Source: an uncultured Gemmatimonadales bacterium
GTDB lineage: Bacteria > Gemmatimonadota > Gemmatimonadetes > Longimicrobiales > RSA9
NCBI GenBank assembly: GCA_963798085.1
Contig: CAWCRS010000001.1
Span: forward strand, 32,001-96,000
DNA: 64,000 bases
Direction of reading: 5' to 3'
Positions 9,907-61,141 of this stretch are shown in pieces. The notes under the pieces are model-generated. The model saw nothing but the letters and a program-made list of their open reading frames with translations. It was not told the origin of the DNA and did no database searches. Made by a program: the position numbers and the translations under genes. Positions within the stretch are counted from its first letter, which is position 1, and each line of letters opens with the position of its first letter.

Positions 9907-9927
9907 TCCACTCACCGGGTGAGTGGA
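9907..9927. promoter_or_regulatory. Perfect palindrome overlapping the padR ribosome-binding site; candidate PadR operator
   Basis: TCCACTCACC-G-GGTGAGTGGA, ending 3 nt before ATG 9931. Confidence 0.55.
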
Positions 9928-9930
9928 GAG

Positions 9931-41820: not shown

Positions 41821-41829
41821 GCCGGCGAC

Positions 41830-42674: not shown

Positions 42675-43175
42675 TCACGGCGCCAGGAAAGGCGACTGAC
42701 GGCCCGCCTCGCTGCCGGCATCGCGGATGATCGCCGAGAGAACGCGCATGTCTCGCGACTCACCACGCAACGCGGCTGTGAGTTCATGCGCGGTGAAGCG
42801 GCCCGCGATCGTGAGATAGATCGCGCCCCTGCCGCTGGGCAGCCCGATCGCCACGACCGTGTCCTCCGCCGACCACGCGACCGGAATCTTGCCGCCGATC
42901 GCGGTGATCAGCGCAATATCGTGGTCGCCGAGCCACGGCGCGCCGTCGAGCATCTCGGCCAACGAGCCGACCGTCGTCGTCCCCGGCGACACGTGACGGC
43001 GAACCAGCTGGATGAGCGCGAGCATCCGATGCGCATCCGCCCTCGTTGCGTCGTTGGCGATGGCGCTCCAGAACGACGGCGTCTCGACCACGGGTGCGAC
43101 CTGCTCCGCTGCTCCACGGAGTTCGGCCTCCGTCGCGTCGCGCCGCTCGAACACCTCGAAAGGATGGGACGACAC
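42675..43175 (-). CDS. Hypothetical protein, candidate immunity/partner of the upstream effector-like gene
   Basis: 166 aa; its GTG start shares base 43175 with the upstream TAG stop. Confidence 0.6.
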   Translation of the reverse strand: MSSHPFEVFERRDATEAELRGAAEQVAPVVETPSFWSAIANDATRADAHRMLALIQLVRRHVSPGTTTVGSLAEMLDGAPWLGDHDIALITAIGGKIPVAWSAEDTVVAIGLPSGRGAIYLTIAGRFTAHELTAALRGESRDMRVLSAIIRDAGSEAGRQSPFLAP

Positions 43176-44161
43176 TATCTTGTTTCTATCTTTGTCGTCT
43201 TTGTTGCCTTCTTACCCTTGGCACAGCAATCCCATGTCGCTTTCAGCGTGTGCGAGATCGCGCCGGTTCCGCCACTCAGAGTCGGGGCGCTGGTGGTCGC
43301 GGGCAGGATCCACGTAGGTGCCTTGTTAGTGACCGTGAAGCTGGTCGGCAGCGTGAGGTCCTCGTAGAATTCAGCGGTCCCCCTGACCGTGACGGTTCCC
43401 TTGGTGTCACTTCCAGGACCAGGGGTAGAAAAGGAGTCGTCGTTGACGTCCCCGCCCTCGGCATAGGTCGTGACCTTCTGGTCCTTGTTGATCTGCCACG
43501 CTTCCCAGACCGGATACCAGCTCGGTTGCAACCCACCGACTTTCGCCGGATCGACCGCCTTGTTGCTGCAGTCCTTGACGCTGTACGGCACTTCTACCTT
43601 CTGAACTACCCATCCACCTTTGGTCGTCGGCTTGTCGAGCTCCCACTGAATCATCCAGTCGAAGCCACCGCAGTCATTCGCAGTCGGGCCTGACACATTC
43701 GACTTCTTCAATTTCGGCGGCTTGGTGGCGGCACCCTTTACCGCCTTGGCACCAGCGCCGCTGGTTTTCGGCCCGTGGCCGCCGGTTACCTCAGGCCACT
43801 GCCCTTCAGCCGGCAGGGATGCACCGAGCTTGCCGGCAACGTTGTCTGCTCCCCGCACGTTACCGGCACTCGCTCCGCTCGCATCGCGCCTCGCCCGGGC
43901 CGTCGCCGCCTCAGCGGCGAGTATGGGAATTCGGCCGAAATCATGACGCGCGCGCGGAATGCCGCTGGAATCGCGTGTGTCGGTTCCGGCACCCCCATCC
44001 AGCATGCCCTGCGCGGCTTGATGCGCGATTGTTTGCTGGTAATGACGCGTCGGGTGCACCTCGTTGCGGAACACGGCGGGCCCTCGACCGGACAGTCCGG
44101 GTCTGACAAATGTGGTCTGCCCGGTCGTCGGTTTCTTCGACTGCTTTGCGAAGGCGGGCAT
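43175..44161 (-). CDS. Orphan eCIS-effector-like protein (DUF4157-type leader motifs, no DUF4157 core, unknown C-terminal domain)
   Basis: ATG 44161 after GGAG; leader YQQTIAHQAAQGML and RHDFGRIPI; C-terminal domain CGGFDWMIQWEL...GWVVQKV...VWEAWQI. Confidence 0.65.
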   Translation of the reverse strand: MPAFAKQSKKPTTGQTTFVRPGLSGRGPAVFRNEVHPTRHYQQTIAHQAAQGMLDGGAGTDTRDSSGIPRARHDFGRIPILAAEAATARARRDASGASAGNVRGADNVAGKLGASLPAEGQWPEVTGGHGPKTSGAGAKAVKGAATKPPKLKKSNVSGPTANDCGGFDWMIQWELDKPTTKGGWVVQKVEVPYSVKDCSNKAVDPAKVGGLQPSWYPVWEAWQINKDQKVTTYAEGGDVNDDSFSTPGPGSDTKGTVTVRGTAEFYEDLTLPTSFTVTNKAPTWILPATTSAPTLSGGTGAISHTLKATWDCCAKGKKATKTTKIETR

Positions 44162-44303
44162 GATCATCTCCTGCGTGCGCATCAGAGCCTGAACTTTCGC
44201 TGCCGTCAGCTGCGTGGCCGTGCGCAACTCCAGAGTGCGATGATCGTGACCGCCGCGCCAGCTTCATTGCCCGACCGGGAACGGCCGTGGTCCCGGATCC
44301 CGC

Positions 44304-44825
44304 TCACCCCGCGGGCAGCCGCCCGTGCGCGCGCAGGAACGGCACCAGCCCGCCCGCTTCCAGCAGCGACAGCGCAATGTCGGGGAGCGGTTCTGCTGCC
44401 TGCACGGCGTCGCGCGTCAGGTTGCGGATCTCGACGCCCGCAGCAGCCACGTGGATGTGCAGTCGATCACCCTCCCGTACGCTGCCGGTATCGCAGCACA
44501 ATGGCATTAACCCGTTGTTCACGGCGTTGCGGAAGAAGGCGCGCGCGAAGCTCTGCGCGAGCACGGCGGGGATGCCCGCCGCCAGGATCACCGTGACGGC
44601 AACTTCCATGGCCGAGCCGCAGCCGAAGTTGCGGCCCGCCACCAGCACATCGCCGGGCTGCACGGATGCGGCGAAGCCGGGATCCACCGCCTCCAGCAGC
44701 CACTGCTTCAGCTGCGCTTCATCGAGCGTGTCGCGCTTGCGTGTGGATGCGATGATGTAGTCGCTGTTGATGTGGTCGCCGAACACGCGCGCCCTCGCCT
44801 CCATGCTGCGCAGCGTGCCGGTCAT
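44304..44825 (-). CDS. leuD: LeuD/HacB/DmdB-family dehydratase small subunit
   Basis: FGDHINSDYII, AGRNFGCGS, SFARAFFRNAVNNG; ATGA-coupled to the large subunit. Family-level assignment. Confidence 0.88.
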   Translation of the reverse strand: MTGTLRSMEARARVFGDHINSDYIIASTRKRDTLDEAQLKQWLLEAVDPGFAASVQPGDVLVAGRNFGCGSAMEVAVTVILAAGIPAVLAQSFARAFFRNAVNNGLMPLCCDTGSVREGDRLHIHVAAAGVEIRNLTRDAVQAAEPLPDIALSLLEAGGLVPFLRAHGRLPAG

Positions 44826-46087
44826 GACGCGAACGCGCGCGGATCGGTAATACGCCCGCTTGCAGCCGCCGCGCCACACGCGGCGGGCGAGGCCAGGTAG
44901 ATGGCGGCCCGCGCGTTGCCCATTCTCGCCTTGAAGTTGCGGTTCGCGGTGGAGAGCACGTTCATGCCGTCGCCGGGAATCGCGCCGCTGGTGCCGCAGC
45001 ACGCGCCGCAGCCGGGCGTCGTGATGATGGCGCCCAGGGCGGCATAGCGTTGCAGTGTGCCATCGGCCAGCAGCTGCAGGTACACTTCGCGCGAAGCCGG
45101 TGTGAGCACGAGCTGCACGCCCGGCGCAATGCGCCCGCCCGCGCGCTCCAGCGTGGCCAGTGCCTCATGGAAGTCGACGACGCGCCCTCCGGTACACGTC
45201 CCGATGAACACCATGTGCACCGGTGTGCCTGCCGCCTGCTCGATGCCCACCACATGGTCCGGCGAATGCGGCAGCGCCACAGCCGGCCCCAGCGCATCCA
45301 GGTTCAGAGTGACCTCGCGAACGTAATGTGCGTCGTCGTCCGACCTCACCGTCGTACCGCGCTCCGTGGTGCGACCTTCGAGGTATGCGTGCGTCTGCGC
45401 ATCGGCGGCAAAGATGGCGGCCTTGGCATCCATCTCCACGGCCAGGTTGCACAGCACCATGCGGTCGTCGACTGACATTGCCGCGGCGGCCGTGCCGTGG
45501 AATTCCAGAGTCTGATACGATGCGCCGTCGTTGCCCAGCTCGCGCACCAGGGCCAGCGCGGCATCCTTCGCGCCCACGCCCGCACCACAATGTCCGGTCA
45601 GCCGCACGCGGATCGTCGCGGGCACGCGCAGCCACACCTGTCCGGTGAGCATGGCGGCCGCAAGGTCGGAGGAGCCGACGCCGGTGGCGAAGAGACCGAG
45701 TGCGCCGCAGGTGACGGTGTGGCTGTCCGCGCCAATCACCAGATCGCCCGGCAGCACACGGCCCAGCTCCGCCGCCAGCTGGTGGCTGATGCCCTCCCCC
45801 ACTTCGTGCAGCTCCACGCCGTAATCGCGCGCAAAGCGGCGCACGCGATCATGGAACGCGGCCGTTTTTGCCGAGGCCGGCGGCGAGTAGTGGTCCAGCG
45901 CGAAGAGCACGCGCGCGGCGTCGAACACCGCGTTACCACCCATTTTCGCGAAATAGTCGATGGCCATGGGCGACGACGCATCGGTACCAATGACGCGGTC
46001 CACGCGGCACACGACGATGTCGCCGGCCCTCGCCTCGCGACCGGCCGCGCGACTCAGGATCTTCTCGCTGATCGTGCGCCCCGGCAT
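44822..46087 (-). CDS. leuC: LeuC/HacA/DmdA-family [4Fe-4S] dehydratase large subunit
   Basis: TISEKIL, DHY, GISH, GADSHT.T.GA, IGTCTGG, PGCGACCG, STANRNF..RMG. Family-level assignment. Confidence 0.9.
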   Translation of the reverse strand: MPGRTISEKILSRAAGREARAGDIVVCRVDRVIGTDASSPMAIDYFAKMGGNAVFDAARVLFALDHYSPPASAKTAAFHDRVRRFARDYGVELHEVGEGISHQLAAELGRVLPGDLVIGADSHTVTCGALGLFATGVGSSDLAAAMLTGQVWLRVPATIRVRLTGHCGAGVGAKDAALALVRELGNDGASYQTLEFHGTAAAAMSVDDRMVLCNLAVEMDAKAAIFAADAQTHAYLEGRTTERGTTVRSDDDAHYVREVTLNLDALGPAVALPHSPDHVVGIEQAAGTPVHMVFIGTCTGGRVVDFHEALATLERAGGRIAPGVQLVLTPASREVYLQLLADGTLQRYAALGAIITTPGCGACCGTSGAIPGDGMNVLSTANRNFKARMGNARAAIYLASPAACGAAAASGRITDPRAFAS

Positions 46088-46092
46088 GGCGG

Positions 46093-47379
46093 TCACGCGC
46101 TGCTGGCCGCTGCGGCCGTGGCGACCGGCGACGTCGGCAGCGTCTCGCCTTCGCCGCGCGCGACCCACGCGCTGCCCGCGAGATTGCCAATCGTGTTGAC
46201 CGTGGTGCGGCACATGTCGAGCGGGCGATCTATGCCCGCCACCAGGGCAATGGCGGCCGCCGCCTGCGGCCCCAGCCCGATCGCGTTCAATACGATGAGC
46301 GTGGTGACCAGCGAGCTGCCCGGCACGCCGGCCCCGGCAAACGCGGCCATGGTCGCGGTGAGGACGATGGTGAGCCGTGTCGCCCCCGTCAGTCCCACAC
46401 CGTACAGCTGCGCGATGAATACCGCCGTAACCGCCTTGTAGACAGCCGCACCGTTCTTGTTCAGCGTGGTGCCCGCGGGCAGCACGAAGCTGACAATGGT
46501 GTTCGAGATGCCGAGTCGGTTGCGCGCCGCCGCCATGCTCACGGGCAGTGTGGCGCTCGAGGATGCGGTGGAGAAGGCCAGCAGCAGCGCGTCGGAGGTG
46601 TCACGGAAGAAGCGTCGCACGCCGACCCGTGCGCCCACACGCAGCAGTGGCAGCAGCACCAGCGACACGTGCAGGGCCAGCGCCAGAATCACGCACAGCC
46701 CGTAGAGCAGCAGGCTGCCCAGCAGCCCGGCGCCCGAGCGCGCCACGGTGGCCGCCACCAGCAGCGCCACGGCGACCGGCGCCAGGCGCATCAGCCAGCC
46801 GATCACGACCATGCACAGCTCATTGATGCCCTGAAAGAACGCGAGCACGGTCTGCGCCGCCTGACCGCGTGTCAGTGTGGCGGCCGCGCCGAAGATGCAG
46901 ACTGCCACGATGAGCGGCAGCAGATCCGCCTGAGCGGCGGCGGCGAACGGGTTCTGCGGGATCATGGCAAGCAGTGTCTGCCCCAGCGTCGGCGCTACCG
47001 CCAGCGGCATCTCTAACGATGCGTTTGCCATGCCCAGCGAAGCCCTTGCCGCCGCATCCAGCCCGGCGCCCACGTGCAGCAGCAGCGCCAGCACCAGCCC
47101 GATGGTCGCGGCGCACAGCGTGGTGAAGAGGAACCAGAGCAGCGTCCGCCCGCCGATGCTCCCCAGACGCCGCACATCGCCCAGCGAGGCAATGCCGGTG
47201 AACAGGCTGGCCACCACCAGCGGCACCACCACCATCGTGATCAGTCGAATGAACGCGGTGCCGAACGGCTCGAGTGCGAACACCACTGTCTGCACGCTGT
47301 CCGCGCCCGGCAGCTTCGCGCCGGCACCGATCACCGCGCCGGCCAGCAGACCGGCGAGGATCTGCGTGTGCAGCTTCAT
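46093..47379 (-). CDS. DAACS-family symporter (GltP-like)
   Basis: FSTASSSATLP, LNKNG, GAGVPG, IDRPLDMCRTTVN. Confidence 0.9.
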   Translation of the reverse strand: MKLHTQILAGLLAGAVIGAGAKLPGADSVQTVVFALEPFGTAFIRLITMVVVPLVVASLFTGIASLGDVRRLGSIGGRTLLWFLFTTLCAATIGLVLALLLHVGAGLDAAARASLGMANASLEMPLAVAPTLGQTLLAMIPQNPFAAAAQADLLPLIVAVCIFGAAATLTRGQAAQTVLAFFQGINELCMVVIGWLMRLAPVAVALLVAATVARSGAGLLGSLLLYGLCVILALALHVSLVLLPLLRVGARVGVRRFFRDTSDALLLAFSTASSSATLPVSMAAARNRLGISNTIVSFVLPAGTTLNKNGAAVYKAVTAVFIAQLYGVGLTGATRLTIVLTATMAAFAGAGVPGSSLVTTLIVLNAIGLGPQAAAAIALVAGIDRPLDMCRTTVNTIGNLAGSAWVARGEGETLPTSPVATAAAASSA

Positions 47380-47410
47380 GACGGGGGCGGCGTCGCCGCC
47401 ACGGTCCGGC

Positions 47411-48091
47411 TCACTCGATCACGCCCTTCTGCCGCAGTGCGCCGTCGATCTCGGCGCGATACAGTACGCCCGCGTGGATCTCCTCGATACGCAGGCGCTC
47501 ACGCTCCGCCAGCGCCGCGACCAGCTCGAGCACTTCCGCCGCACTGTCGCGCGGCACGACCGCGATGCCGTCGCTGTCACCCACCACGATGTCGCCCGGT
47601 GACACCACCGTGCCGCCGCAGCTGATGGGCCCATTGATCTCGCCCGGCCCATCCTTGTCACAACCACCCGGACTGACCGTGCGGCTGTACGCGGGGAAGC
47701 CCAGCCGCGTGATGGCCTCCACATCGCGGATGGCGCCATCGACGACAATGCCACCCAGGCCCTTGCCCACGGCCGTGTGACACATCAGCTCGCCAAACAC
47801 CGCGCTAGTCGTGTTGCCGCACGTGTTCACCACCACGATGTCGCCGGGCTCCGCCTCCTGCAGCGCCTTGTGCACCATCAGGTTGTCAGCGGGCCGGCAG
47901 CACACGGTGACCGCCAGGCCGCAGAGCGGCAGGGCGCTGCGCGCATGCATGCCGGGGTCCATGAAATGGAAGCGGCCCATGGCATTGGCCAGGTTGGGTG
48001 CGGCCAGTCCCTGGAAGCGGGCGACCAGCGCGGCAGCCAGGCGAGGCGGCGCTGGCAGCACGCGGAATCCCGGCTTGCCCGCCTTCGGCAT
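47411..48091 (-). CDS. RraA-family protein / HMG-CHA-type aldolase
   Basis: DNLMVHKAL, FGELM, VVDGAIRD, V.PGDIVVGD.DG. Confidence 0.88.
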   Translation of the reverse strand: MPKAGKPGFRVLPAPPRLAAALVARFQGLAAPNLANAMGRFHFMDPGMHARSALPLCGLAVTVCCRPADNLMVHKALQEAEPGDIVVVNTCGNTTSAVFGELMCHTAVGKGLGGIVVDGAIRDVEAITRLGFPAYSRTVSPGGCDKDGPGEINGPISCGGTVVSPGDIVVGDSDGIAVVPRDSAAEVLELVAALAERERLRIEEIHAGVLYRAEIDGALRQKGVIE

Positions 48092-48427
48092 GATGGCATC
48101 TCCTGTCGCGCGGTTGCGACCGTGGCGTGCACACGTGCCTGCGCACGAGTCGCGCGAATCATGCGCGAGACCGGCGTAGTGCCGCAACTGCGACCGGCAG
48201 GCACCCGGCGAGAACCGGCGAGCGCGTCCTGCCAGCGAACCATTCAACCAGAGCTGAAGCCGCCTGTTCATGTGCCGCGCACCTGGTGTGCGGCTGTCGT
48301 TGATCCTCGCGGCGCGGGGATCCAGATCCTCGGGCCCTTGGATCTACTGCCTTCGATCCATTGCTGCCGTCTGCGCGCGAGGCCGACATTCGCGCCGGAT
48401 CTTCAGCCGGAGCTCGGACGACGGCTC

Positions 48428-48775
48428 GTGGAACACGTTCGCGTCGTAATGGCCGGCCTGCCACGCATGCTCCGGGACCTGATCCGCGTTCAGCTGGAAG
48501 CGGAGCCGGGCGTGGTCGTGGCGGCGGAAAGTGGCGTGGTAGCGGCGCTGCCCGAACTGCTGTCGGATGGTCGGGCGGATGTGCTGGTGCTGGGCGTCAC
48601 CTCGGAGCCGAGCTGGCGTGCGGTGTGTGAAACGCTGGCGCTGCGCGAGCGGTTGCGGATGCTGACCGTGGGTGAGGGCGGGCGCGTGCTGCGCGTGTAC
48701 GCGCTGCGTGCGCGTCCGGTCGAGGGATCGATCGCAAGTCTGATCACCGCGATCCGTGAAGAGAGCGGCGAGTGA
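48428..48775 (+). CDS. Stand-alone receiver-like (pseudo-REC) protein heading the eCIS operon
   Basis: VRVVMAGLPRMLRDLIR..LEAEPG.VVAAE...ADVLVLG resembles a NarL-type receiver lacking the acidic pocket. Confidence 0.55.
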   Translation: MEHVRVVMAGLPRMLRDLIRVQLEAEPGVVVAAESGVVAALPELLSDGRADVLVLGVTSEPSWRAVCETLALRERLRMLTVGEGGRVLRVYALRARPVEGSIASLITAIREESGE

Positions 48776-48827
48776 GCGGCAACCGGCGGCAGACCGGCTG
48801 CTCGCGTGTTGACGTCGAGGAGGTGCC

Positions 48828-51059
48828 ATGCCTGCAAGCCTGACGTTCCCCGGTGTTTACCTCGAAGAATTGCCCAGCGGCGTTCGCACGATCACCGGCG
48901 TGGGCACATCGCTGGCCGCGTTCCTCGGCTTTACGCCGCGCGGCCCCGTGAATCGTGCGGTGCGCGTGCAGAGCTTCGCCGATTTCGAGCGCAGCTTCGG
49001 CGGGCTCAGCACGGCCAGTCCGCTCGGGCACGCGGTGCGACAGTTCTTCCTGAACGGCGGCGCCGACGGCTATGTGGTGCGCGCCGCGGCGGGCGCACAG
49101 ACCGCGAGCGTGCAGCTGCTCGACACGGGCGGCAATCCCTCGCTCGAGGCCACGGCCTCGTCGCCGGGCGCCTGGGGCAACTTCCTCCGCCTGACAGTCG
49201 ATTACGCCACCGCATCGCCCGAGAGCACGTTCAACCTGCGCGTGACCGAGCTGGTGCTGGACGGCGGCACGCCGCGTGTGGGACGCGCGGAGAACTTCGG
49301 CGGCCTCACCATGAACAGTCTGGCCGCGAACTACGCGGTCGACGTAGTGAACGCCGCTTCACAGCTGATCCAGCTCACGCGTCTGGCGGGCGCAGCGGCC
49401 AATGCGGGCACGGCGTTCAGCGGCCCGATCGTGGCCGCTGACCTGGCCGCGCTCGACGCGGGCCACAACCGCCTGGCCGTCTTCGTCAACGGACAGGGTC
49501 CGTTCGAGGTAGCGCTGGCGCTGCCGGTCGCCGATGTCGCGGATCTCGCGAACAAGATCACGACCGGCCTGAACGCGACCGGCGATCCGCTGGCCGCGGG
49601 CGTCACCGTCTCCGCCGCGGGCAGTCGCATTCAGCTCACGTCGGGCACGACGGGTGACGACTCGACGCTTCGCGTGGGTCCCGCCAGCACCAATAATGCA
49701 TCCATCAGGCTGCACTTCGGCGTGATCAATGGCGGTCGCGAAGTCAATGCGGCGGGCGTGATCCGTCCCTCGCCCAGCGGCACGACAGGCGGCGCCGCCA
49801 TTGACACGGCCACGGTGGCGACCGGCCCGCTCGACGTCACGGTCACGCCGCGTGTGGGCGGCGCGGCCACCGACACGCTCGCGCTCACCGTTCCCCCGCA
49901 GCCGCTGACCGCGGCGCAGGTGCGCACCATTGTCGAGCAGGCCCTGCGTGCGGCCACACGCCCGGCGCTGCGCACAGCCACGGTCGCGCTGGTGGATAAC
50001 AGACTTGTCATCACTGCCGCCAATGACGATGCCACCCGCCTCGGCTTCGGCAACACGCTGGCGGCACCGCTCGGTCTGACGGGCGGCACCAGCAATGTTG
50101 CCATGTATGCGCTGGGCACCGGTCCGACAGCGGGGCAGCAGGTGCAGGGCACGTCGGGTTTCGATGGCAATCCGCCTTCGCCTGCCGACCTGATCGGCAG
50201 CCGCGCCGCACGCACCGGCCTCTACGCGCTCGAGGGCGTCGACCTCTTCAACATCATGCTGGTGCCCGGCGAAACCTCGAACGCAGTGTTATCCGAGGCG
50301 CTGGCCTACTGCACCGAGCGCCGCGCCATGCTCATTGTCGATCCGCCGCAGAATGCGCAGTCGGTGGATGATGCGACGACGTGGCTCGACTCGATCGGCG
50401 CCCTGCGCAGCCGCAACGCGGCCGCCTACTTCCCGTGGGTCTCGCTGGAGGATCCGGTGCGCGGCTTCCGTCCCACCGGCTTCCCGCCCTCGGGCACCGT
50501 GGCCGGCGTCTGGGCGCGCACGGATACCGAGCGCGGCGTGTGGAAGGCACCCGCCGGCACCGACGCCAGCCTGCGCGGCACCATCGGCCTCGCCAGCACG
50601 CTGACCGACGCGCAGAACGGCGTGCTCAATCCGCTCGGCCTCAATGTGCTGCGCACACTGCCCGTGTTCGGCTCCGTGGTCTGGGGCGCGCGCACACTGC
50701 GCGGCGCCGACCAGATGGCCGACGAATACAAGTACATCCCGGTGCGCCGCCTCGCGCTGTTCCTCGAGGAAAGTCTGTTCCGCGGCCTGCAGTGGGTGGT
50801 GTTCGAGCCCAATGATGAGCCGCTCTGGGCGCAGATCCGTCTCAATGTCGGCGCCTTCATGCAGACGCTGTTCCGCCAGGGCGCATTCGCCGGCACATCG
50901 CCACGCGACGCCTATTTCGTGAAGTGCGACAGCGAGACGACGACGCAGAACGACGTGAATCTCGGTGTGGTGAATGTGGTCGTCGGATTCGCGCCGCTCA
51001 AGCCGGCGGAATTCGTCGTTATCAAGATCCAGCAGATGGCCGGCCAGGTGCAGACCTGA
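48828..51059 (+). CDS. Contractile tail sheath protein (Afp2/3/4-like)
   Basis: FPGVYLEE, GVWKAPAG, VWGARTL, YIPVRR, WVVFEPN, VGFAPLKPAEFV. Confidence 0.96.
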   Translation: MPASLTFPGVYLEELPSGVRTITGVGTSLAAFLGFTPRGPVNRAVRVQSFADFERSFGGLSTASPLGHAVRQFFLNGGADGYVVRAAAGAQTASVQLLDTGGNPSLEATASSPGAWGNFLRLTVDYATASPESTFNLRVTELVLDGGTPRVGRAENFGGLTMNSLAANYAVDVVNAASQLIQLTRLAGAAANAGTAFSGPIVAADLAALDAGHNRLAVFVNGQGPFEVALALPVADVADLANKITTGLNATGDPLAAGVTVSAAGSRIQLTSGTTGDDSTLRVGPASTNNASIRLHFGVINGGREVNAAGVIRPSPSGTTGGAAIDTATVATGPLDVTVTPRVGGAATDTLALTVPPQPLTAAQVRTIVEQALRAATRPALRTATVALVDNRLVITAANDDATRLGFGNTLAAPLGLTGGTSNVAMYALGTGPTAGQQVQGTSGFDGNPPSPADLIGSRAARTGLYALEGVDLFNIMLVPGETSNAVLSEALAYCTERRAMLIVDPPQNAQSVDDATTWLDSIGALRSRNAAAYFPWVSLEDPVRGFRPTGFPPSGTVAGVWARTDTERGVWKAPAGTDASLRGTIGLASTLTDAQNGVLNPLGLNVLRTLPVFGSVVWGARTLRGADQMADEYKYIPVRRLALFLEESLFRGLQWVVFEPNDEPLWAQIRLNVGAFMQTLFRQGAFAGTSPRDAYFVKCDSETTTQNDVNLGVVNVVVGFAPLKPAEFVVIKIQQMAGQVQT

Positions 51060-51098
51060 GTCGGGACTGTCGGCAAGTAATCTCGTCGGAGGCCGGTC

Positions 51099-51626
51099 AT
51101 GGCACAGTTCACGGTCAATGCCACGCGCTTCGATCCCTACAAGAACTTCAAGTTCCGCGTGAAGTGGGATGGTCGATACGTCGCGGGCGTGAGCAAGGTC
51201 GGTTCGCTCAAGCGCACCACGGAAGTGGTGAAGCACCGCGAGGGCGGCGATCCCAGCTCGAGCCGGAAATCCCCCGGTCGCACGGAATTCGATGCCATCA
51301 CGCTGGAGCGCGGCGTGACACACGACACCGAGTTCGAGAAATGGGCCAACAAGGTGTGGAACTTTGGCTCGGGCCTGGGCGCGGAGACGTCGCTGCGTGA
51401 TTTCCGCAAGGACGTGATCCTCGAGGTCTACAATGAAGCCGGTCAGCTGGTGCTGGCCTACAAGATCTTCCGCTGCTGGGTCTCCGAATTCCAGGCGCTG
51501 CCGGACCTCGACGCCAACGCCAATGCTGTCGCCATCCAGCACATCAAGCTGGAGAACGAAGGCTGGGAGCGTGACTACAATGTGGTCGAGCCGCAGGAGC
51601 CCAGCTTCACTGAACCGCTGACGTAG
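51099..51626 (+). CDS. Tail tube protein (T4 gp19/Afp1-like)
   Basis: RFDPYKNFKFRVKWDG, HREGG, PGRTEFDAITLERG, LENEGWE. Confidence 0.95.
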   Translation: MAQFTVNATRFDPYKNFKFRVKWDGRYVAGVSKVGSLKRTTEVVKHREGGDPSSSRKSPGRTEFDAITLERGVTHDTEFEKWANKVWNFGSGLGAETSLRDFRKDVILEVYNEAGQLVLAYKIFRCWVSEFQALPDLDANANAVAIQHIKLENEGWERDYNVVEPQEPSFTEPLT

Positions 51627-51628
51627 TC

Positions 51629-52420
51629 GTGGGGCGCAGTACGAGTCCGTCCGATCTGCTGCGCGTCTGGGAACGAGGCGATTCGCGCCCGCTGCCCGAG
51701 CGCGCGCTCGAGCTGCTGGCGCTCGCGCTGCCGGACGCACCGTGGGACGAGCTCGCCGCCCTGTCCTTGGCCGCGCGCGATCGCGAACTGCTGCGGCTGC
51801 GCGCGGCGCTGTTCGGCGAATCGCTCGATGCCACCGCCCGCTGTCCCGCGTGTGCGGGCACGGTCGCGTTCCGCACGACAGTTCCGGAGATGCTGCGCGC
51901 CCTCTCCGGCGACGCACCGGTTCAGCGGCTGGATCTGGAAGGCGACACGTTCCGGGTCCGGCCACCGAACGCGCTCGACCTCGTCCTCGCCGCACGCTGC
52001 GCCGATGCCGCTGCCGCCACCCGCCTGGTCATGCAACGTTGTGTTAGCACAGACACCGGTGCACCGGACGACGGCAGCATGACGGCGGGGGCAGGCGCGG
52101 ACGGAGCAGGTCCGGCGGCCCGGGATAACGGCTGGTTTGACGGATTGCCGGATGCCGCGCAGGCTGCCCTTGCCGCGGCCATGGATCGCGTCACCGAGCC
52201 CGCTTCCCTGCAGATCGCACTGGCTTGCGCGGACTGTGGCGCGCATGTGCCGGTGGAGTTCGACATTGTCCCTTTCCTCTGGCGCGAAGTCGCCGCCGAG
52301 GCGAAGCGGCTCGCGAGTCAGGTCGTGCTGCTGGCCCGGGCCTTTGCCTGGCGCGAACGCGACATCCTCGAGCTCTCCGCCGCCCGCCGCCGTCTCTACC
52401 TCGAGCTGGCAGGCGGCTGA
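51629..52420 (+). CDS. Conserved eCIS protein with two CxxC pairs (baseplate-hub/assembly-chaperone-like)
   Basis: CPAC and CADC motifs; FRVRPPN; C-terminal LARAFAWRERDIL.LS..RR..YLEL. Confidence 0.7.
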   Translation: MGRSTSPSDLLRVWERGDSRPLPERALELLALALPDAPWDELAALSLAARDRELLRLRAALFGESLDATARCPACAGTVAFRTTVPEMLRALSGDAPVQRLDLEGDTFRVRPPNALDLVLAARCADAAAATRLVMQRCVSTDTGAPDDGSMTAGAGADGAGPAARDNGWFDGLPDAAQAALAAAMDRVTEPASLQIALACADCGAHVPVEFDIVPFLWREVAAEAKRLASQVVLLARAFAWRERDILELSAARRRLYLELAGG

Positions 52421-53199
52421 TGGGCGCGCTCGATCGTCTGGTCTCGCGCACCCTGGAGAGCGCGCCCGTGGCCCGGCCCGTGCTGACACCACTGTTCGCA
52501 GCACCCGGCCCGCCGCCGCCATTGCCCGGCCTGCCCGTACCGGAGGCTCGCGGTGCCGTCCCTGCCGGTCGCGCAACCGCCGAGCCGCGGTCGAGCGATC
52601 GGCCGGCAGGCGCCCGCGCAGAGCGACTCTCGCTCGAGGAATGGCTCGACTCCCCGGCCCGGCAGGCCAGCGCATCCGACCGCTTCACGCGCGCGGTTTT
52701 GTCAGCGGGCGAGGCTGACGCGAATGTTGCGCGCCCGCGGGGTGCAGCGTGGGCGGATCCCGCAGAGAGTGCGGCTCACGTGGCGGCGGTACGCGAGACC
52801 GTGCCCACCGGGTCGGCGCCGCGTGCGCCCATCGCCGACGCCGTCACGCAGGGCGGCGATGCGGCGCAGGCCGCGCGTGGGTCGGCCGCCGAGGCGATCG
52901 ACAGGCTGGCCCGCCGCCTGGACGCGCGCGAAGCGCAGGATGGCGCACGCCCCGCTCCACGGATTGCAGGCGACGATGCCGCCTCGGCTCGCCGGCCCGC
53001 TGCCGCGAACCCGCCGGTCGTCTTCGAACAGTCCGTTAGCAGCGCTGCCGGCGCGCCTGCGGAAGCGCCGGTGGTGCGGGTGAGCATTGGCCGCGTGCTG
53101 GTGCGCGCCATCCTGCCGCCGCCTTCGCCTCGACCCGCGGCGCGACCGGGCCCGGCCGGACCCACGCTCGAGGAGTACCTGCGCGGAGGCCGGCGATGA
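52420..53199 (+). CDS. Pro/Ala-rich low-complexity eCIS protein
   Basis: Coupled to both neighbours; C-terminal VVRVSIGRVLVRA...TLEEYL. Confidence 0.65.
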   Translation: MGALDRLVSRTLESAPVARPVLTPLFAAPGPPPPLPGLPVPEARGAVPAGRATAEPRSSDRPAGARAERLSLEEWLDSPARQASASDRFTRAVLSAGEADANVARPRGAAWADPAESAAHVAAVRETVPTGSAPRAPIADAVTQGGDAAQAARGSAAEAIDRLARRLDAREAQDGARPAPRIAGDDAASARRPAAANPPVVFEQSVSSAAGAPAEAPVVRVSIGRVLVRAILPPPSPRPAARPGPAGPTLEEYLRGGRR

Positions 53200-54505
53200 G
53201 CAATGCGCTGTGCATTGCCACGGTCACGTCGACACTGCGGCGCGAACTGACGCTCGCACTGACGGCGAACGTGGCCGGTCGCGTGCCCAACACCACGGTC
53301 ACGACCCTGCGGCCGGACCGCGTGCAGAATCCGCTCGCCGATCCCACTGTCAATCTGTTCCTCTACGCGGTGACGCCGGACCCGTCGTTCCGCAACGTGG
53401 ATCTGCCCACGCGCAGCAGCAACGGCCGGCTGACGGCGGGAAACCGCGTCGCGCTCGACATGCACTACCTGCTCACGTTCCACGGCGATGATGCCACGCT
53501 CGTGCCGCAGCGGCTGCTGGCCATTACCGCGAGAACGCTGCACGCGCACCCCGTGCTGACGGCGCAGATGATCCGTGACACGGTGGCGGACGCGGCGACG
53601 TTTCCGTTCCTGGCCGGCGCCGACCTGGATCAGGCCGATGAGCCCGTGCGCATCACGCCCGCGCCGCTGACGCTCGAGGAGACATCGAAGTTCTGGGCCA
53701 TGTTCCCGCAGACGTCGGCCGCGCCATCACTGAGTTACATCGCGGCCGCCGTGCTGGTCGCTGCCGAGGCGCAGCCGGCGGCAGGACCGCCGGTACGGCT
53801 GCGCAATGTCTACGTGGTGCCGGCCGCACAGCCGTTCATCGAGCGCGTTACTGGGCCGGCCGGCATCAACGACCCGCTCGTCGCGAGCAGTACGCTGGTC
53901 ATCAGCGGACGTGCGCTGCGCGCCGATATCACACAGCTGCGCGTGGAGGCGGCCACCATCGATGTAGTGTCCAATCCAGCGGGCACGGAGATCCGCGTGC
54001 CGGTGCCCGCGACCGTACTCGCCGGACTGCGGGGCGCGCAGATCATCCAGCCGCAGCAGCTGGGCACACCGCCGGTGCCGCACCGCGGCATGGAATCCAA
54101 CGTCGCGCCGTTCCTGCTGCGGCCCGCGATCGCGCAGGACAATCCCGGCAACTTCCTGGTCTCGGCCGGCAACATCGTTGCGGGTGCGGGCAATCTGCGT
54201 ACGGCTGACATCACGTTCACCGTGACGCCCGCGGTGGGCAAGCGGCAGCGCATGCTGCTCTACCTGATCGAGCGGCTGCCGCCTGCGGATCGCGCGCCGC
54301 GCGTGTTCGCGGTCGTAGCGCCATCGCGTGACGTGCCGGCCGAACCTGAGACGCGCGCGGTGTTCACGCTCACGGCCGCGAACATCGAGGCCGGTGATTA
54401 CGTGGCCAGGCTGCAGGTGGATGGCGCCGACAGCACGTTCGTCGCCGACGCCGATCCGCAGAGCCCCACGTTCAACCAGTTCATTGCGCCCCGCGTGCAG
54501 GTCCC

Positions 54506-54509
<4 letters not shown>
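53196..54509 (+). CDS. DUF4255 / Pvc16-Afp16-like cap (tail terminator) protein
   Basis: MSNALCIATVTSTLR, VNLFLY.V, LDMHYLLT, LH.HPVL. Confidence 0.88.
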
Positions 54510-56508
<1,999 letters not shown>

Positions 56509-56512
<4 letters not shown>

Positions 56513-56808
56513 GCGCGCACGCCGCGACCCGCCGGCCACAGCATGGCTCGCCCTCTCGGCCGCCGCGGTACGAGCTGCACATCGAGGAAGTCGTACTCGA
56601 GGGCTTCGACTCGCTGCCGGAACGAGCACTGCGCACAGCAATCGAGCAGGAGCTGACTCGCCTGTTCCGCGAGCGCGGCGGGCGGGCGGGCGGGCGGGAC
56701 CTCGCAGTGGACCGCGTCGATGCGGGCGCCTTCCAGGCCACCAATGTGCGCGCCGCACCTCTGGGCGCCAGCATCGCAAACGCGGTGTTCGACGGGTTGC
56801 CACGATGA
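56509..56808 (+). CDS. Small eCIS-associated hypothetical protein
   Basis: ATGA-coupled on both sides; YELHIEEVVLEGF...AIEQELTRLF. Confidence 0.7.
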
Positions 56809-58079
56809 GTGAGCGCGCCGCCGTGCAGACTGCAACGCCCGTCCCGTCGAGTGCGGCACGCGCCGCTTCACCGGTGCGGCTGCTGCGCCGCAAGTGCGGC
56901 TGCGGCGGCGACCACGAAGGCGAGTGCGACGAGTGCAGGAAGAAGCGCATGGGCACCGTGCAGCGCTCGGCAATCGATGCCGCGTCGCTGGATCGCATTC
57001 CGCAAGAGGTCGACGAAGAGCTGGCGCGCGCCGGCACGACACTCGAGCCGGGTGTGCGCCGCTTCATGGAGCAGCGCTTCGGCCACGACTTCGGCACTGT
57101 GCGCGTGCACAGCAATGCGCGGGCCGCCGCGTCCGCTGATGCCGTGCGGGCACGGGCCTACACGGTGGGCTCTGACGTCGTGTTTGCCGCCGGCCAGTAC
57201 CAGCCGGAGACCGGTGAGGGGCGGCGCCTGCTGGCGCACGAGCTGACCCACGTCGTGCAGCAGTCGGGCAGTGCCTCGCCGGCCGCGGATTCCGCCACGG
57301 CGGAAGCCCGTGACGAAGCGGAAGCGGTGCGCGCCGAACACATGGTCGCGGCGTCGTCGCCTGCACCCGTTGCGGTTTCTTCCTCGCCCGGCAGCGCGCT
57401 GCGCCGGCAGGGTGGCGGCACGCAGGGGCAGCCTGCGCCGAAGAAGCCCAGCGCGATCGAGAAGCTTACGCACCTGACCTTCCATCTCGGTGATGCCACC
57501 TTCGAGATCGACCTGCCTTCCTCCGTCTCAGCGACCCTGCCCATTGAGCTGTCCGGCAGGACGAAGATCACGTTCGCGCTGAAAGGCACGACATCGGGCG
57601 CGTTCACCTTCACGGCCACGCTCGACGGCATTCCCCACGTGCGCATCATCGCGAAGGCCGGCGTCGAAGTGGGCGACAAGTCGAAGGCCACCGCGGGCAT
57701 CACGGTCGAAGCCACGCGCAAGGTCTGCCGCGTGAAGAACGAAGGCGAGATGCGCAAGGATCTGCAGAGTGCGGGCGACAAGCTCAAGAGCGCGATCGTC
57801 GACTTTCAGAAGCTGCCCGACGCCCTGGCGGGTGTGAGCGATGAGGTGGAGCGCGCGAAGATCATTGGTACGCGGGCGGGTGCAGTCGGCTCGGCCATTG
57901 GCGCAGTGAACAGCGCCATCGAGAAGGCGAAGGCGCCCTGCAAGGAGACGCCGGTGTTCTCGTTCGATTTCGGCGTGCAGGCGCCACTGCAGCCGGCGCA
58001 GCCGGACTTCTTCGGCCCCGGCTCCTCGGCGCCGCCCATGGGCCCATCCGTGGGCGCCACCTTCACGTGGCATTTCTAA
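56805..58079 (+). CDS. DUF4157 (eCIS core) protein with variable C-terminal domain; candidate effector
   Basis: RKCGCGG..ECDEC; MEQRFGHDFGTVRVH, ARAYTVG, LLAHELTHVVQQ; ends in GATFTWHF. Confidence 0.9.
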   Translation: MSERAAVQTATPVPSSAARAASPVRLLRRKCGCGGDHEGECDECRKKRMGTVQRSAIDAASLDRIPQEVDEELARAGTTLEPGVRRFMEQRFGHDFGTVRVHSNARAAASADAVRARAYTVGSDVVFAAGQYQPETGEGRRLLAHELTHVVQQSGSASPAADSATAEARDEAEAVRAEHMVAASSPAPVAVSSSPGSALRRQGGGTQGQPAPKKPSAIEKLTHLTFHLGDATFEIDLPSSVSATLPIELSGRTKITFALKGTTSGAFTFTATLDGIPHVRIIAKAGVEVGDKSKATAGITVEATRKVCRVKNEGEMRKDLQSAGDKLKSAIVDFQKLPDALAGVSDEVERAKIIGTRAGAVGSAIGAVNSAIEKAKAPCKETPVFSFDFGVQAPLQPAQPDFFGPGSSAPPMGPSVGATFTWHF

Positions 58080-58083
58080 CGCC

Positions 58084-59043
58084 ATGTTGAGCGCCTGCCG
58101 CCTCCGTTGCAGCGCCGTCGCGCGCACGAGCGTAATGCCGGTGCTGCGCCGCACCTCGCATGCGCCGTTGATGCTGCACGGCGCAGTACGCGCCGCTGCC
58201 GATGGCGCCGCGAACGCTGCGCCGCTGCTCGCGCCCGCAACACACGATTTCGGACGCGTACTGGTGAGCAGCCGCGGTCATGGCGGCTTCGGTGATGGCG
58301 GCGACAAGCCGGTGGTCGCGGACAAGGGCAAGGAAGGCGAGCAGGGCAAGGACGCCGGCCCGGGCTCCGCAGGAACGCCGGCACCACCCGTCACATGCGT
58401 GCCCGACAAGGCGCTCGACTTCACGGACTACACGGGCACCGCACCGTCGGGCACGGGACACGCCGGCAAGACCACGTACGACTTCAATGTCGTGAGCGGC
58501 ACGGGCGGCGATGTCATCCAGGCGAAGTTCGCTGGCGCCAGCTCGTGGCTGCGGTCCGACGTCCTCAACGGCGGCGACCGCAATGCCAACGGCTGCGCCG
58601 GTATAACAACGGATTGCGAGGCCAGCTTCACCCAGGAAGGCGACTATTACGAGCTGGATTCGCGACCCGTCCCGGGGTGCGCCGCGAGCGAGCGCTACCC
58701 GGCCGGCACGAAGGCGATGAAGAAGAGCGAGTGCCGCTCCAAAGTCGAACCCGTGTGCATGACAACGAAGAAGAAAGAGGCCGCGCGCGTGCTGCACCAT
58801 GAGCAGAGGCACCTCGACCTGGGCTGCGCGCTGGCCGCCATGGGCACGGCCGCCATTGCCGCGGGCAGCAGCTCGAGTGCAGCGCTGGACCAGGTCAAGT
58901 ACACGGATGGTGTGCTGACCGCGAAATACGACAGCGAAGCGAAGAACGGTTGTGATGCCACTGCGCAGACCAAGTGGGACACCGAGATCGGCGGCGGACT
59001 GCCGTCGTACAAACTCATGACGAGGCCGAAGAAGAAGAAATGA
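58084..59043 (+). CDS. Cys-rich DUF922-like putative zinc metallopeptidase; candidate effector; start uncertain
   Basis: LDFTDYTG.AP, SSW, VLHHEQRHLD, YDSE.KNG....Q.KW; N-terminal HDFGRV. Confidence 0.7.
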   Translation: MLSACRLRCSAVARTSVMPVLRRTSHAPLMLHGAVRAAADGAANAAPLLAPATHDFGRVLVSSRGHGGFGDGGDKPVVADKGKEGEQGKDAGPGSAGTPAPPVTCVPDKALDFTDYTGTAPSGTGHAGKTTYDFNVVSGTGGDVIQAKFAGASSWLRSDVLNGGDRNANGCAGITTDCEASFTQEGDYYELDSRPVPGCAASERYPAGTKAMKKSECRSKVEPVCMTTKKKEAARVLHHEQRHLDLGCALAAMGTAAIAAGSSSSAALDQVKYTDGVLTAKYDSEAKNGCDATAQTKWDTEIGGGLPSYKLMTRPKKKK

Positions 59044-59699
59044 GCACGTTCCCCGGTTCACCGCGTGTGCTCAAGGCGGGCCTCGTGCTGCTGGATCCGG
59101 ACACGGCCGCGGTGCAGCGCGTCATTGTGCTGCAGTACAACCCGGACTCGCTGTCGCGCACACTGCAGATCCAGTCGGTGGGCGGCACCGAGGCGGAGCG
59201 CTCCGATGTCGTGCGGCTCAAGGCGCCGCCCATCGAGACGTTCAAGCTGGATGCCGAGCTGGATGCGACCGACCAGCTCGAGCATCCCGACCAGAATCCG
59301 AACGCGGTGGAGGTCGGCATCCTGCCCGAGCTGGCCGCGCTGGAAACACTGCTCTATCCCACGAGCAGCCGGCTGCAGACGGTCGATGCGCTGGCGAGGT
59401 CCGGCACGCTCGAGATCACGCCGCAGGAGGCGCCGCTGGCGCTGCTGGTGTGGAGCCGCGAGCGCGTGGTGCCGGTGCGCGTCACGGACTTCAGTGTGAC
59501 CGAGGAAGCCTTCGATCCCTCGCTCAATCCGCTGCGCGCCAGGGTCAGCCTCGGATTCCGCGCGCTGAGCATTGCCGACCTGCCTTCCGGCCACCGCGGC
59601 GCCACGCTGTTCCTGAGTTATCTGCAGCGCAAGGAACGGCTGGCGCAGCGCAGTCCCTCTCGCCCGCTCGGCTCGCTGGGCGTGGAATCGATCTCGTGA
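59040..59699 (+). CDS. CIS tube-initiator-like protein (Afp7 N-terminal equivalent)
   Basis: LQYNPDSLSRTL, ELDATDQLE, LVWS..RVVPVRVT.FSVTEEAFDP.LNP. Confidence 0.8.
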   Translation: MSTFPGSPRVLKAGLVLLDPDTAAVQRVIVLQYNPDSLSRTLQIQSVGGTEAERSDVVRLKAPPIETFKLDAELDATDQLEHPDQNPNAVEVGILPELAALETLLYPTSSRLQTVDALARSGTLEITPQEAPLALLVWSRERVVPVRVTDFSVTEEAFDPSLNPLRARVSLGFRALSIADLPSGHRGATLFLSYLQRKERLAQRSPSRPLGSLGVESIS

Positions 59700-59708
59700 G
59701 GAGGCCGG

Positions 59709-60020
59709 ATGCTGCCGCCTGACAGCCGCTACAGCACGATTTCCACCGCCACGTACACCCGCGCGGATGGCGTGACAATCGTGTACCTGCGACGCCGGTT
59801 GTTGCCCGATCCGGAACGGCTCGCGCAGATCGCCCTGCACGCCGTGGTCGCGGGCGAGCGCCCCGACCTGGTCGCCGCACGTTATTACGCTAACCCGGCC
59901 TTATGGTGGCGCATCGCCAATGCCAATGGCGTGCACGATCCCGCCGAGCTGACCGATACGCCCGGAAGGCGGCTGCGCATCACGCTGCCCGAAGGCATTC
60001 CGGGGCCGGCCCATGCGTGA
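59709..60020 (+). CDS. LysM / tail-X-like protein
   Basis: SRY, YLRRR, GERPDLVAARYY....WWRIANAN. Confidence 0.85.
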   Translation: MLPPDSRYSTISTATYTRADGVTIVYLRRRLLPDPERLAQIALHAVVAGERPDLVAARYYANPALWWRIANANGVHDPAELTDTPGRRLRITLPEGIPGPAHA

Positions 60021-61141
60021 CGCCATGCTGCTCACGCTCATGGTCGGGCCCGGTGTGCCCGTGCCTGTGCCCCGCTCGGTGCTGGACGCGCTGACTTCCG
60101 TCCGCGTCATCACCGACTCGGGCGAAACCATGAGCGGCTTCGAGCTGACCTTCACCATGGACGCGCGCTCCCCGCTGCAGACGCTGTTTCTGCTCGCAGG
60201 CGGATCGCTGCCGCCCATCTTCCGCGTCGTGCTGGTAGCCACGGTCAATGGTATTGCCGAAGTGCTGATCGATGGCGTGATGACCAGCCAGCGCACGGCG
60301 CAGGCCGATGATGGCAAGGTCACGCTCACCGTGACGGGCAAGGACCTGCTCGCCGTGCTCGACTACCTGCCGCCCCTGCCCATTCCCTGGCCCGCCATGC
60401 CCGCGGAAGTGCGTGTGCTCGCCATTCTCGCGAAGTATGCGGTGTTAGGCGTTGTGCCGCTGGTCATTCCCAGCATCATGGTCAATGTGCCCATACCCAC
60501 GGACCGCATACCGCGGCAGCAGGGCACGGATCTCGAGTACGTAAAGGCGCTCGCGGATGAAGTGGGCTACGTCTTCTACCTGAAGCCGGGGCCGGTGCCG
60601 GGCATGAGCGTGGCCTACTGGGGACCCGAGATCAAGGTGGGCGCGCCGCAGTCCGCGCTGACGCTCGATGTCGAGAACAACCGCAACGCCATTTCCATTT
60701 CGTTCAGCTTCAATGCGGAAGCCGCCGAGCTGCCCATTGTCTGGATCCAGGAGCCCATCTCCGAAGGTGCCCATCGGTATTCCCATACCCGACATCACGC
60801 CGCTGAATCCGCCGCTCGCCGCGATTCCGCCGATCCCGAAGAAGTTTCCGGCCATCGATGAGACGGCGAAGTACTCGCCCGTGCGCGCACTGCTCGTGGG
60901 CCTGGCCAGGGCTGCACAGCGCGCCAATGTCACCACCGGCGATGGTTCCCTCGATGTGCTGCGCTACGGCAGGCTGCTGCGGGCGAGGGAGCTGGTGGGC
61001 GTGCGCGGCGCCGGGACCGCGTTCGATGGACTGTACTACGTCTCGCGCGTCACGCACGAGATCGGCCGCGGCGCGTACACGCAGAGCTTCACACTGAAGC
61101 GCAACGGCCTCGTCTCCAATGTTCCGCAGGTACCGGTATGA
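60013..61141 (+). CDS. gpD/gp27-like baseplate hub (VgrG N-terminal half); 1-nt insertion at about 60761
   Basis: SGFELTF, LTVTGKDL, QQGTDLEY in frame 1. Removing one base joins PISKVPIGIPIPDITPLNPPL...LDVLRYG.LLRA..LVGVRGAG..FDGLYYV..VTH. Confidence 0.85.

Follow-up and report, generated by a model that had tools for sequence, protein, structure and literature searches.

How does an extracellular contractile injection system (eCIS) recognise the proteins that it carries? The choice and loading of eCIS cargo are an open question, which limits the use of these systems as protein-delivery tools. Here, the question is raised by a locus of an uncultured Gemmatimonadales bacterium (contig CAWCRS010000001.1). 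The stretch of DNA analysed, referred to as the window, has a length of 64,000 nucleotides and a G+C content of ~68%. It contains an eCIS operon and three genes whose products share an HDF motif: P0001, encoded upstream of the operon, and P0002 and P0003, encoded within it. An initial annotation, made from the letters of the window, treated the three motifs as one element and proposed it as a minimal loading signal.

Effectors of the Photorhabdus virulence cassette (PVC) carry N-terminal leaders that are transferable, and loading into the tube needs both the leader and the AAA ATPase Pvc15. These leaders are described by their composition, not by a motif.

We suggest that the first 85 residues of P0001 are a loading sequence for the adjacent eCIS, that a conserved linear motif, here called box-L, lies within this leader, and that P0001 is a naturally DUF4157-less effector. 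We assign this reading a probability of about 0.7. P0001 is most likely an effector of the neighbouring eCIS because a leader and a linker are followed by a toxin-like domain without DUF4157, and because an immunity-like gene comes next.

The leader of P0001 and its boxes

All three motifs are present in the translations: RHDFGRIPI in the gene at 43175..44161 on the reverse strand, GHDFGTVRVH at 57084 and THDFGRVLV at 58243. DUF4157 (Pfam: PF13699) is found by Pfam in P0002 only, and P0001 and P0003 have no match to it even at E<=10, in agreement with the initial annotation. The translations also show what was described there: leaders of low complexity, linkers of Gly and Lys, and C-terminal parts that contain Cys. 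That there is no signal peptide is a judgement by eye, made without a predictor. The claim that P0001 and P0003 lack a core HExxH is right for a core of the DUF4157 type; P0003 does, however, contain HEQRH at residue 239.

P0001 consists of a leader, a Gly/Lys linker and an all-beta C-terminal domain, and AGGAG stands 6 nt before its ATG at 44161. In an AlphaFold2 (AF2) model built with 20 family sequences, residues 1-141 are disordered, with a predicted local distance difference test score (pLDDT) below 50 over residues 13-141, and residues 150-328 are all-beta with a pLDDT of about 90. Three elements can be recognised in the leader: MPAFAKQ, which fits MxTFAxK, then HYQQTIAHQAAQGML, a degenerate form of LQRTIGNQAVQRML, and finally PRARHDFGRIPILA, which is box-L. 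The leaders of close relatives read MRTFAEKPKATQQ... HLQRTIGNQAVQRML... PRFGHDFSRIPIHA. The middle element is the LQR box, LQRxxGNxAVxRxL, which in fuller form reads LQRTIGNQAVQRxL.

Alignment A1 contains 15 leaders, P0001 itself being one of the rows, and none of the 15 contains DUF4157. P0001 aligns across all 85 leader residues, with the middle box degenerate and the last box intact, and its identity to the 14 other leaders is 16-42%. The A1 profile was run against 1.84 billion representative proteins, clustered at 50% identity. It matches 1,866 representative clusters at E<=1e-3 and 729 at E<=1e-10, and the best 150 proteins all match at the extreme N-terminus, from residue 1 to about 84. 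PF13699 lies downstream of the leader in 103 of the 148 new proteins among the best matches (75/111 and 28/37).

In the usual plan of these proteins, box-L, HDFSRIP[IVL], stands at residue 73 and a second box, box-C, HDFSxVRV, near residue 189, where the Pfam domain begins; the spacing of the two within one protein is ~115 residues. The consensus of a 49-sequence alignment starts with ...ASxRFGHDFSRIPxH...PGDxYEQEADRVAEQVMRM...C..GG.CP.C... and continues with SPGQPLD..TRAFMEPRFGHDFSxVRVH...AYTVG..IVFG...LLAHELTHVVQQ. In this alignment PRFG precedes both boxes, and D, F, I and P of box-L are invariant or nearly so. The box-L consensus, PRFGHDFSRIP[IV]H, and the box-C consensus, PRFGHDFSxVRVH, thus have the eight residues PRFGHDFS in common.

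After these eight residues the boxes diverge. Logos were made from 141 boxes without a downstream HExxH (box-L) and from 74 boxes followed by HExxH (box-C). In box-L, with a median position of 73, D is found in 93%, F in 100%, I in 87% and P in 86% of the sequences. At +5, box-L has Ile (87%) and box-C has Val (99%); at +6, Pro (86%) is replaced by Arg (92%); and His at +8 is present in 69% of box-L against 97% of box-C.

The two boxes also differ structurally. When a two-box protein is modelled with AF2, the pLDDT exceeds 95 for DUF4157, box-C included, and box-C forms a strand, while box-L is unstructured (pLDDT 44-52). Box-C belongs to the folded, metallopeptidase-like DUF4157 domain, of which it is the first strand region, and box-L is a separate short linear motif in a disordered leader. 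Treating the motifs of the window as one element was therefore mistaken: P0002 has box-C within a fold and P0001 has box-L outside one. The initial annotation was right that the HDF box is among the best-conserved parts of a P0001-type leader.

Two further features were seen in these proteins. Between box-L and DUF4157, PGDxYEQEADRVAEQVMRM forms a confident helix in the model of P0222 (residues 91-120, pLDDT 87-94), and this helix may pack on the DUF4157 domain of the model. P0084 (759 aa) has three box-C-type motifs (residues 189, 293 and 365) and two PF13699 stretches. Tandem duplication of DUF4157 thus occurs, and it is a possible origin of box-L.

The P0001 family, its partner gene and the eCIS operon

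A search with P0001 gives 79 homologues at E<=1e-3, which have the C-terminal 180 residues in common. PF13699 precedes the shared domain in six of the 79, and the others have short leaders. The same C-terminal domain is found behind full DUF4157 leaders and behind quite different short leaders; the leader is cut right after the box in P0015 and P0026, and P0012 has two boxes. Related loci were collected by a profile scan of genome contigs using a 20-row P0001-family alignment, while a scan with P0004 as sole query gave two short leader-like matches, L001 and L002. A box-L-like motif is present in 9/10 of the metagenome loci of the P0001 family for which the N-terminus is available. The leaders of the box-bearing loci otherwise differ from each other (MKERCERG.., MTHTYARYRP.., MFAQRIAQ..), and the presence of box-L in leaders without other mutual similarity argues for selection on the box itself.

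Structure searches with the C-terminal domain gave no match at E<=0.001 against the PDB using Foldseek, and none against the ESM Atlas. VIA-align found generic FN3/Ig-like sandwiches, the best with a Z of 6.2 and an rmsd of 3.6 over 93 residues.

The 166-residue gene that follows P0001 has homologues with 33-59% identity (alignment A4). Among the 13 metagenome loci, the partner lies immediately downstream of the P0001-family gene in all 11 that include downstream DNA, among them L025, where the family gene is the DUF4157-fused form. It matches no Pfam or NCBIfam family. As a conserved small gene is found directly downstream whatever the leader type, P0001 and its partner look like an effector-immunity pair judging by gene layout, with toxicity and its neutralisation as predictions, and the partner is a candidate for the immunity protein to a toxin-like family that is new.

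The P0001 gene had been called distant from the eCIS; it is in fact the sixth gene upstream of the sheath gene. Related genes lie in or beside eCIS operons in three of four long, independent contexts. In L023, a 132-kb contig, the P0001 homologue is inside the eCIS operon, after the ATPase and before two DUF4157 genes. In L031, a core-less gene of the family (9638-10195, forward strand) directly follows a DUF4157 gene (8118-9640, forward strand) with both boxes, its box-L being WNFGGIPVF, and this pair follows at the 3' end of an operon whose eCIS genes are syntenic with those of the window.

The association was also surveyed in 401 genomes of the phylum of the window. Pvc16_N is found in 21 and the A1 profile in 10, with an overlap of 6 (Fisher p 1.8e-6, a value obtained from only 13 scored candidates per genome and from related genomes that do not count as independent). 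The matches L013, L014 and L017 are spurious frames. After curation, seven leader-bearing genomes are genuine, and 5/7 have Pvc16_N as compared with 21/401 overall; the other two, G101 and G156 (unpublished), have genuine leader-like matches and no Pvc16_N match. A DUF4157-type core is carried by the genuine matches L009, L010, L015/L018, L016 and L012, while L011 has the LQR box and a different HExxH. The curated matches of G199, G270 and G226 bear DUF4157, those of G199 and G270 at 2.5-8 kb from Pvc16_N. As the classified genuine matches other than P0001 are mostly DUF4157-bearing, the survey is no test of core-less box-L cargo. In 301 genomes of the phylum of G470 the A1 profile gave no match, missing even the known two-box protein of G470.

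The features of the window are collected in Table 1. P0002 occupies the slot between the ATPase and the tube initiator, and P0003 starts 4 nt after the P0002 stop, in the slot where cargo genes sit in L023. By analogy with the PVC and AlgoCIS literature, the Pvc15-like protein is the presumed loading ATPase. The operon continues from the last ~2 kb of the window to about G000:C1:104,400, 8.4 kb past the window end, and this part encodes gp25, Baseplate_J, a P2_I-like gene and a gene with DUF6519 plus a beta-helix.

Table 1. Coordinates of the features discussed, in window positions.
Feature	Position	Strand	Basis or remark
Immunity-like partner gene, 166 aa	42675..43175	-	conserved directly downstream of P0001
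P0001 (P0004), 328 aa, DUF4157-less eCIS effector candidate	43175..44161	-	translation
Leader of P0001, 85 aa	43907..44161	-	alignment A1, leader profile
Box-L of P0001, HDFGRIPI	43922..43945	-	translation; H codon at 43945
eCIS operon	48828..64000	+	Pfam; runs on beyond window end
Sheath gene	48828-51059	+	Pfam
gp19-type tube gene	51099-51626	+	Pfam; then two unassigned open reading frames
Pvc16_N gene	53196-54509	+	Pfam
Pvc15-like AAA ATPase with winged-helix N-domain (WHD)	54506-56512	+	PF00004 E 7e-27, WHD E 2.2e-15
P0002, DUF4157 protein, 424 aa from first Met	56805..58079	+	PF13699
Box-C of P0002, HDFGTVRV	57084..57107	+	translation
P0003, 319 aa, Cys-rich orphan in cargo slot	58084..59043	+	translation
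Box of P0003, HDFGRVLV, atypical	58243..58266	+	translation
CIS_tube gene	58974-59699	+	Pfam
VgrG-like OB domain gene	61138-61653	+	Pfam; PAAR-like gene also in operon

Outside the operon, two fragments of an FtsX-type permease C-terminal domain are found at 41517-42242 (forward strand) of the window and at G000:C1 about 104,440-104,673. An intact MacB-like paralogue aligns with them over its residues 698-737 and 730-813. Between the fragments lie the complete eCIS operon, the module of P0001 and four metabolic genes. The two fragments may mark an insertion or rearrangement of roughly 31 kb.

Possible roles of the box

By extension from published work, the disordered leader would serve as the loading sequence in the AAA ATPase pathway that takes cargo into the tube. 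The leader would contain several conserved docking-type motifs, box-L among them, and the ATPase, a DUF4157 adaptor or the spike could be the reader of box-L. In P0001, the leader is joined through the Gly/Lys linker straight to a toxin-like beta-sandwich domain.

The natural diversity of the proteins is consistent with such a module. Members with DUF4157 end in TGL, Ntox5, Ntox16, Ntox34, Aspzincin_M35 or OmpA, and others in PG_binding_1, HEAT or DUF7689. PF13699 is absent in 45 of the 148 leader proteins, although 32 of these 45 are shorter than 250 aa and may be fragments. The 13 that have at least 250 aa and no PF13699 fall into 10 BLAST groups by their regions after residue 95, none related to P0001. 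The proposal of a portable packaging leader thus holds in that the P0001 leader is homologous to leaders of DUF4157 effectors and such leaders are joined to unrelated C-terminal domains; it is likely a portable loading tag.

The narrower proposal, that HDF is the minimal loading signal, is unproven, and box-L is neither necessary nor minimal within the P0001 family itself. In mini-profile searches for box-L and the LQR box (threshold of at least 8 bits), the LQR box alone is detected in 26 of the 73 core-less relatives of P0001, box-L alone in 12, both boxes in 8 and neither box in 27; a regular expression finds a box in 26/73. Since box-L is not universal in the family, we regard it as one of several interchangeable leader elements. 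From the sequence comparisons it is a strong candidate for a loading determinant, though not a universal one.

This distribution of the boxes is one of several points that weigh against our reading. The leader of P0002 has a Cys box, RRKCGCGG..C.EC, and neither box-L nor the LQR box, and therefore the three proteins share no leader. P0003 has no detectable relatives and does not match the leader profile. The C-terminal domain of P0001 resembles generic beta-sandwiches only, and its putative toxicity is deduced from the conserved partner gene alone. At the genomic level, L021 and L029, which are near-identical and were counted once, show no eCIS gene in the flanking DNA obtained (10 kb on each side, scanned, for L021; mostly upstream for L029), and 20 other Pvc16_N neighbourhoods of the phylum (~350 kb) contain three boxes, all of them box-C with a core and none core-less. 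The AlgoCIS study describes cargo that still loads when DUF4157, and hence box-C, is deleted, which speaks against HDF as the signal; in favour of our reading of the leader, the region N-terminal to DUF4157 is required for loading there and DUF4157 is dispensable (10.64898/2026.05.27.728243).

P0002 is a clear DUF4157 protein. PF13699 matches residues 280-355 of the long open reading frame (E 4.6e-33, 113.7 bits against a cut-off of 22), with HELTH as the HExxH. Its start is uncertain, because the open frame extends back to 56205; ~290 nt (56512-56805) lie between the ATPase stop and the first Met. The only other PF13699 match above the cut-off in the genome is a weak one on C7, in a small open reading frame with LLAHELAHVQQ at G000:C7:1077705-1078394 (forward strand), far from the eCIS locus, which matches only the C-terminal half of PF13699 (E 2.4e-4, 24 bits). 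Another weak match, on C5, is in a non-coding-looking frame.

In P0003, an N-terminus of low complexity is followed by a Gly/Lys/Asp linker and then by a C-terminal half rich in Cys; this half contains the HEQRH and, going by this motif, could be a small metalloenzyme of its own. P0003 is probably a second DUF4157-less cargo, possibly working with P0002. The case for its box rests only on rarity and position, and it may be asked whether only the P0001 box is meaningful, with HDFGRV in P0003 a chance match and P0003 being, for example, a structural or accessory eCIS protein. Much about the protein fits this. Neither a word-based search with the whole protein nor a search with leader residues 18-110 finds relatives, 100 related genomes give only noise (E of about 5e-3), and there is no ESM Atlas match and no significant Pfam match. 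Its HDFGRVLVSS departs from both consensus forms, as it has the Val of box-C at +5 but lacks both Pro and Arg at +6, and also the His at +8. It scores 3.5 bits against the A1 leader profile (E 0.022 in a three-sequence search), below the threshold, and less than 8 bits against the box-L mini-profile, only the six residues HDFGRV being shared. No immunity-like gene neighbours it, the next gene being CIS_tube, and the motif was spotted by eye after the fact.

The motif was also counted across the genome. The proteome scan used 5,888 coding-like open reading frames (2,021,318 aa) of the 6.2-Mb genome and found HDF[GS].[IVL] twice, in P0001 and P0003; the P0002 frame had fallen out at the GC filter and was recovered in a six-frame scan, which gave eight matches in 12,462,404 residues, the remaining five in non-coding-like frames. 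As 2.5 matches per 2.02 M aa are expected from amino-acid composition, the number is not above chance. Their clustering is another matter: all three boxes lie within 16 kb at the eCIS operon, and by simple arithmetic three random matches in 6.23 Mb would all do so with a probability of ~2e-5. For P0003 itself, about 4e-4 such boxes are expected per 319-aa protein (1.25e-6 per residue), yet the box is in the N-terminal low-complexity part of a protein encoded right after a DUF4157 gene. In addition, all three boxes have Gly at +3, a residue that is rare in both logos (box-L 9%, box-C 5%); this post hoc observation hints at a common partner or a common history. On balance, a chance origin of the P0003 box seems rather unlikely. 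Gene conversion among the three boxes was considered and rejected, as their codons differ at synonymous sites. No further open reading frames of leader or box type were found in the genome beyond three mid-protein, chance-like matches.

It can be speculated that box-L serves as a docking tag that is transferable and recognised by its sequence. As a linear copy of the segment with which DUF4157 begins, it would bring core-less cargo to the same receptor, with a DUF4157 adaptor, the spike or tube initiator, or the ATPase as candidates. This more specific idea we also regard as rather doubtful. If it were true, ~13 residues, with or without the LQR box, would suffice as a tag that sends foreign proteins into the particles of this large eCIS lineage.

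A related explanation is that box-L is the site where a DUF4157 protein, here P0002, holds core-less cargo in trans and links it to the spike or tube initiator, the box serving as a docking strand or as a site cut by the HExxH domain. As PRFGHDFS is common to both boxes, box-L could act as a mimic of the strand region that comes first in DUF4157. Core-less genes with box-L adjoin DUF4157 genes in L023 and L031, and P0003 directly follows P0002. Published work points the same way: DUF4157 has been proposed as a chaperone in cis or in trans (PMC11297309), and in Streptomyces lividans a small DUF4157 protein is described as binding spike proteins as well as a neighbouring effector without DUF4157, the latter at its N-terminal region (10.1101/2025.11.06.686954). 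The S. lividans result, and the tendency of DUF4157-less effectors to be encoded beside DUF4157 genes (PMC11297309), are also in favour of our main reading. The N-terminus of the S. lividans effector is, however, a coiled coil and not a leader of the P0001 type. The two-box model shows no packing of box-L on DUF4157, and its EQEADRVA helix (residues 100-114) is far more confident than the box, with a pLDDT of 87-94. A fold of the DUF4157 region of P0002 (residues 55-175, Met-start, A6) with A1 leaders scored 0.01, in a run without controls, and weighs neither for nor against. Most box-L proteins, moreover, have a DUF4157 of their own, which a purely trans role fails to explain, and we consider such a role unlikely.

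Box-L might instead be the relic of a decayed upstream copy of DUF4157, with loading achieved by general disorder, charge or other boxes. Tandem copies do exist, as in P0084, many members of the P0001 family lack box-L, and published loading signals are described by disorder and composition and not by a motif (PMC11297309; 10.64898/2026.05.27.728243). Without a function, however, the box would not have kept its D, F, I and P almost unchanged at one position in a family of 1,866 clusters, nor would it survive in leaders that are otherwise unrelated in sequence. That box-L consistently has Ile-Pro where box-C has Val-Arg points to selection for another state, one that is not a strand. A relic is therefore very unlikely.

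Least probable is that the leader serves another pathway (a different secretion route or cell-surface display) and is near the eCIS incidentally: the L021/L029 module among housekeeping genes and the matches of G101 and G156 would fit this, but most of the best leader proteins carry the eCIS marker PF13699, Pvc16_N is enriched in the curated leader-bearing genomes, DUF4157-bearing matches lie close to Pvc16_N in G199 and G270, and DUF4157 proteins of a haloarchaeon are described as encoded far from the cluster and still secreted in a sheath-dependent manner (PMC11566945).

Comparison with known systems

A leader read as a loading sequence with box-L in it changes how the question of eCIS loading can be put. 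In a very large DUF4157-associated lineage, the leader can be broken down into a small number of short conserved boxes. One of these copies the first eight residues of DUF4157, and natural variants show the leader as a module without this domain. What the signal is then becomes a question of point mutations and minimal tags, and the box consensus offers a sequence criterion by which DUF4157-less cargo can be recognised, with a new pair of toxin-like and immunity-like genes as one case. A full-text search for motifs of the HDF-box and LQR type, supplements and Extended Data alignments aside, returned no relevant paper.

Compared by description, PVC leaders are similar in being N-terminal and transferable and in working with an AAA ATPase. 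Polymorphic toxin-immunity modules resemble P0001 and its partner in the variable trafficking N-terminus, in a C-terminal domain that is conserved behind different leaders including DUF4157, and in the conserved small gene immediately downstream. In contrast to them, the toxin-like domain of P0001 and the partner match no Pfam or NCBIfam family.

The closest family is that of the eCIS_core effectors with DUF4157/PF13699, as presented in Geller 2021 (PMC8213781) and Danov 2024 (PMC11297309). P0002 is a member, the leader of P0001 is one that normally precedes DUF4157, the C-terminal domains are polymorphic and the genes lie in or near eCIS operons. P0001 and P0003 differ in having no such domain, and box-L shares only PRFGHDFS with it, being disordered and outside the fold. 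The passages on DUF4157 in these and other papers (including PMC11126660, PMC12210884, PMC8213781, PMC8894135 and PMC11566945) describe no such boxes.

For the arrangement of P0002 and P0003, the nearest precedent, by analogy, is Sle1/SLIV_17110 of the phage-tail-like particle of Streptomyces lividans, where a DUF4157-less effector is encoded beside a small DUF4157 protein (10.1101/2025.11.06.686954). Sle1 differs in its long, tape-measure-like N-terminal coiled coil, and the S. lividans system is cytoplasmic.

Cgo1 and Cgo2 of AlgoCIS (10.64898/2026.05.27.728243; PMC8894135) resemble the proteins studied here in that a disordered N-terminal region precedes DUF4157 and the effector domain at the C-terminus varies, and both systems have an operon with an AAA ATPase. 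PVC effectors are stated to lack DUF4157, and the authors of the AlgoCIS study describe leaders as not conserved between systems (10.64898/2026.05.27.728243). Compared by description, the difference is that here defined boxes are conserved over 1,866 clusters and that P0001 is naturally DUF4157-less.

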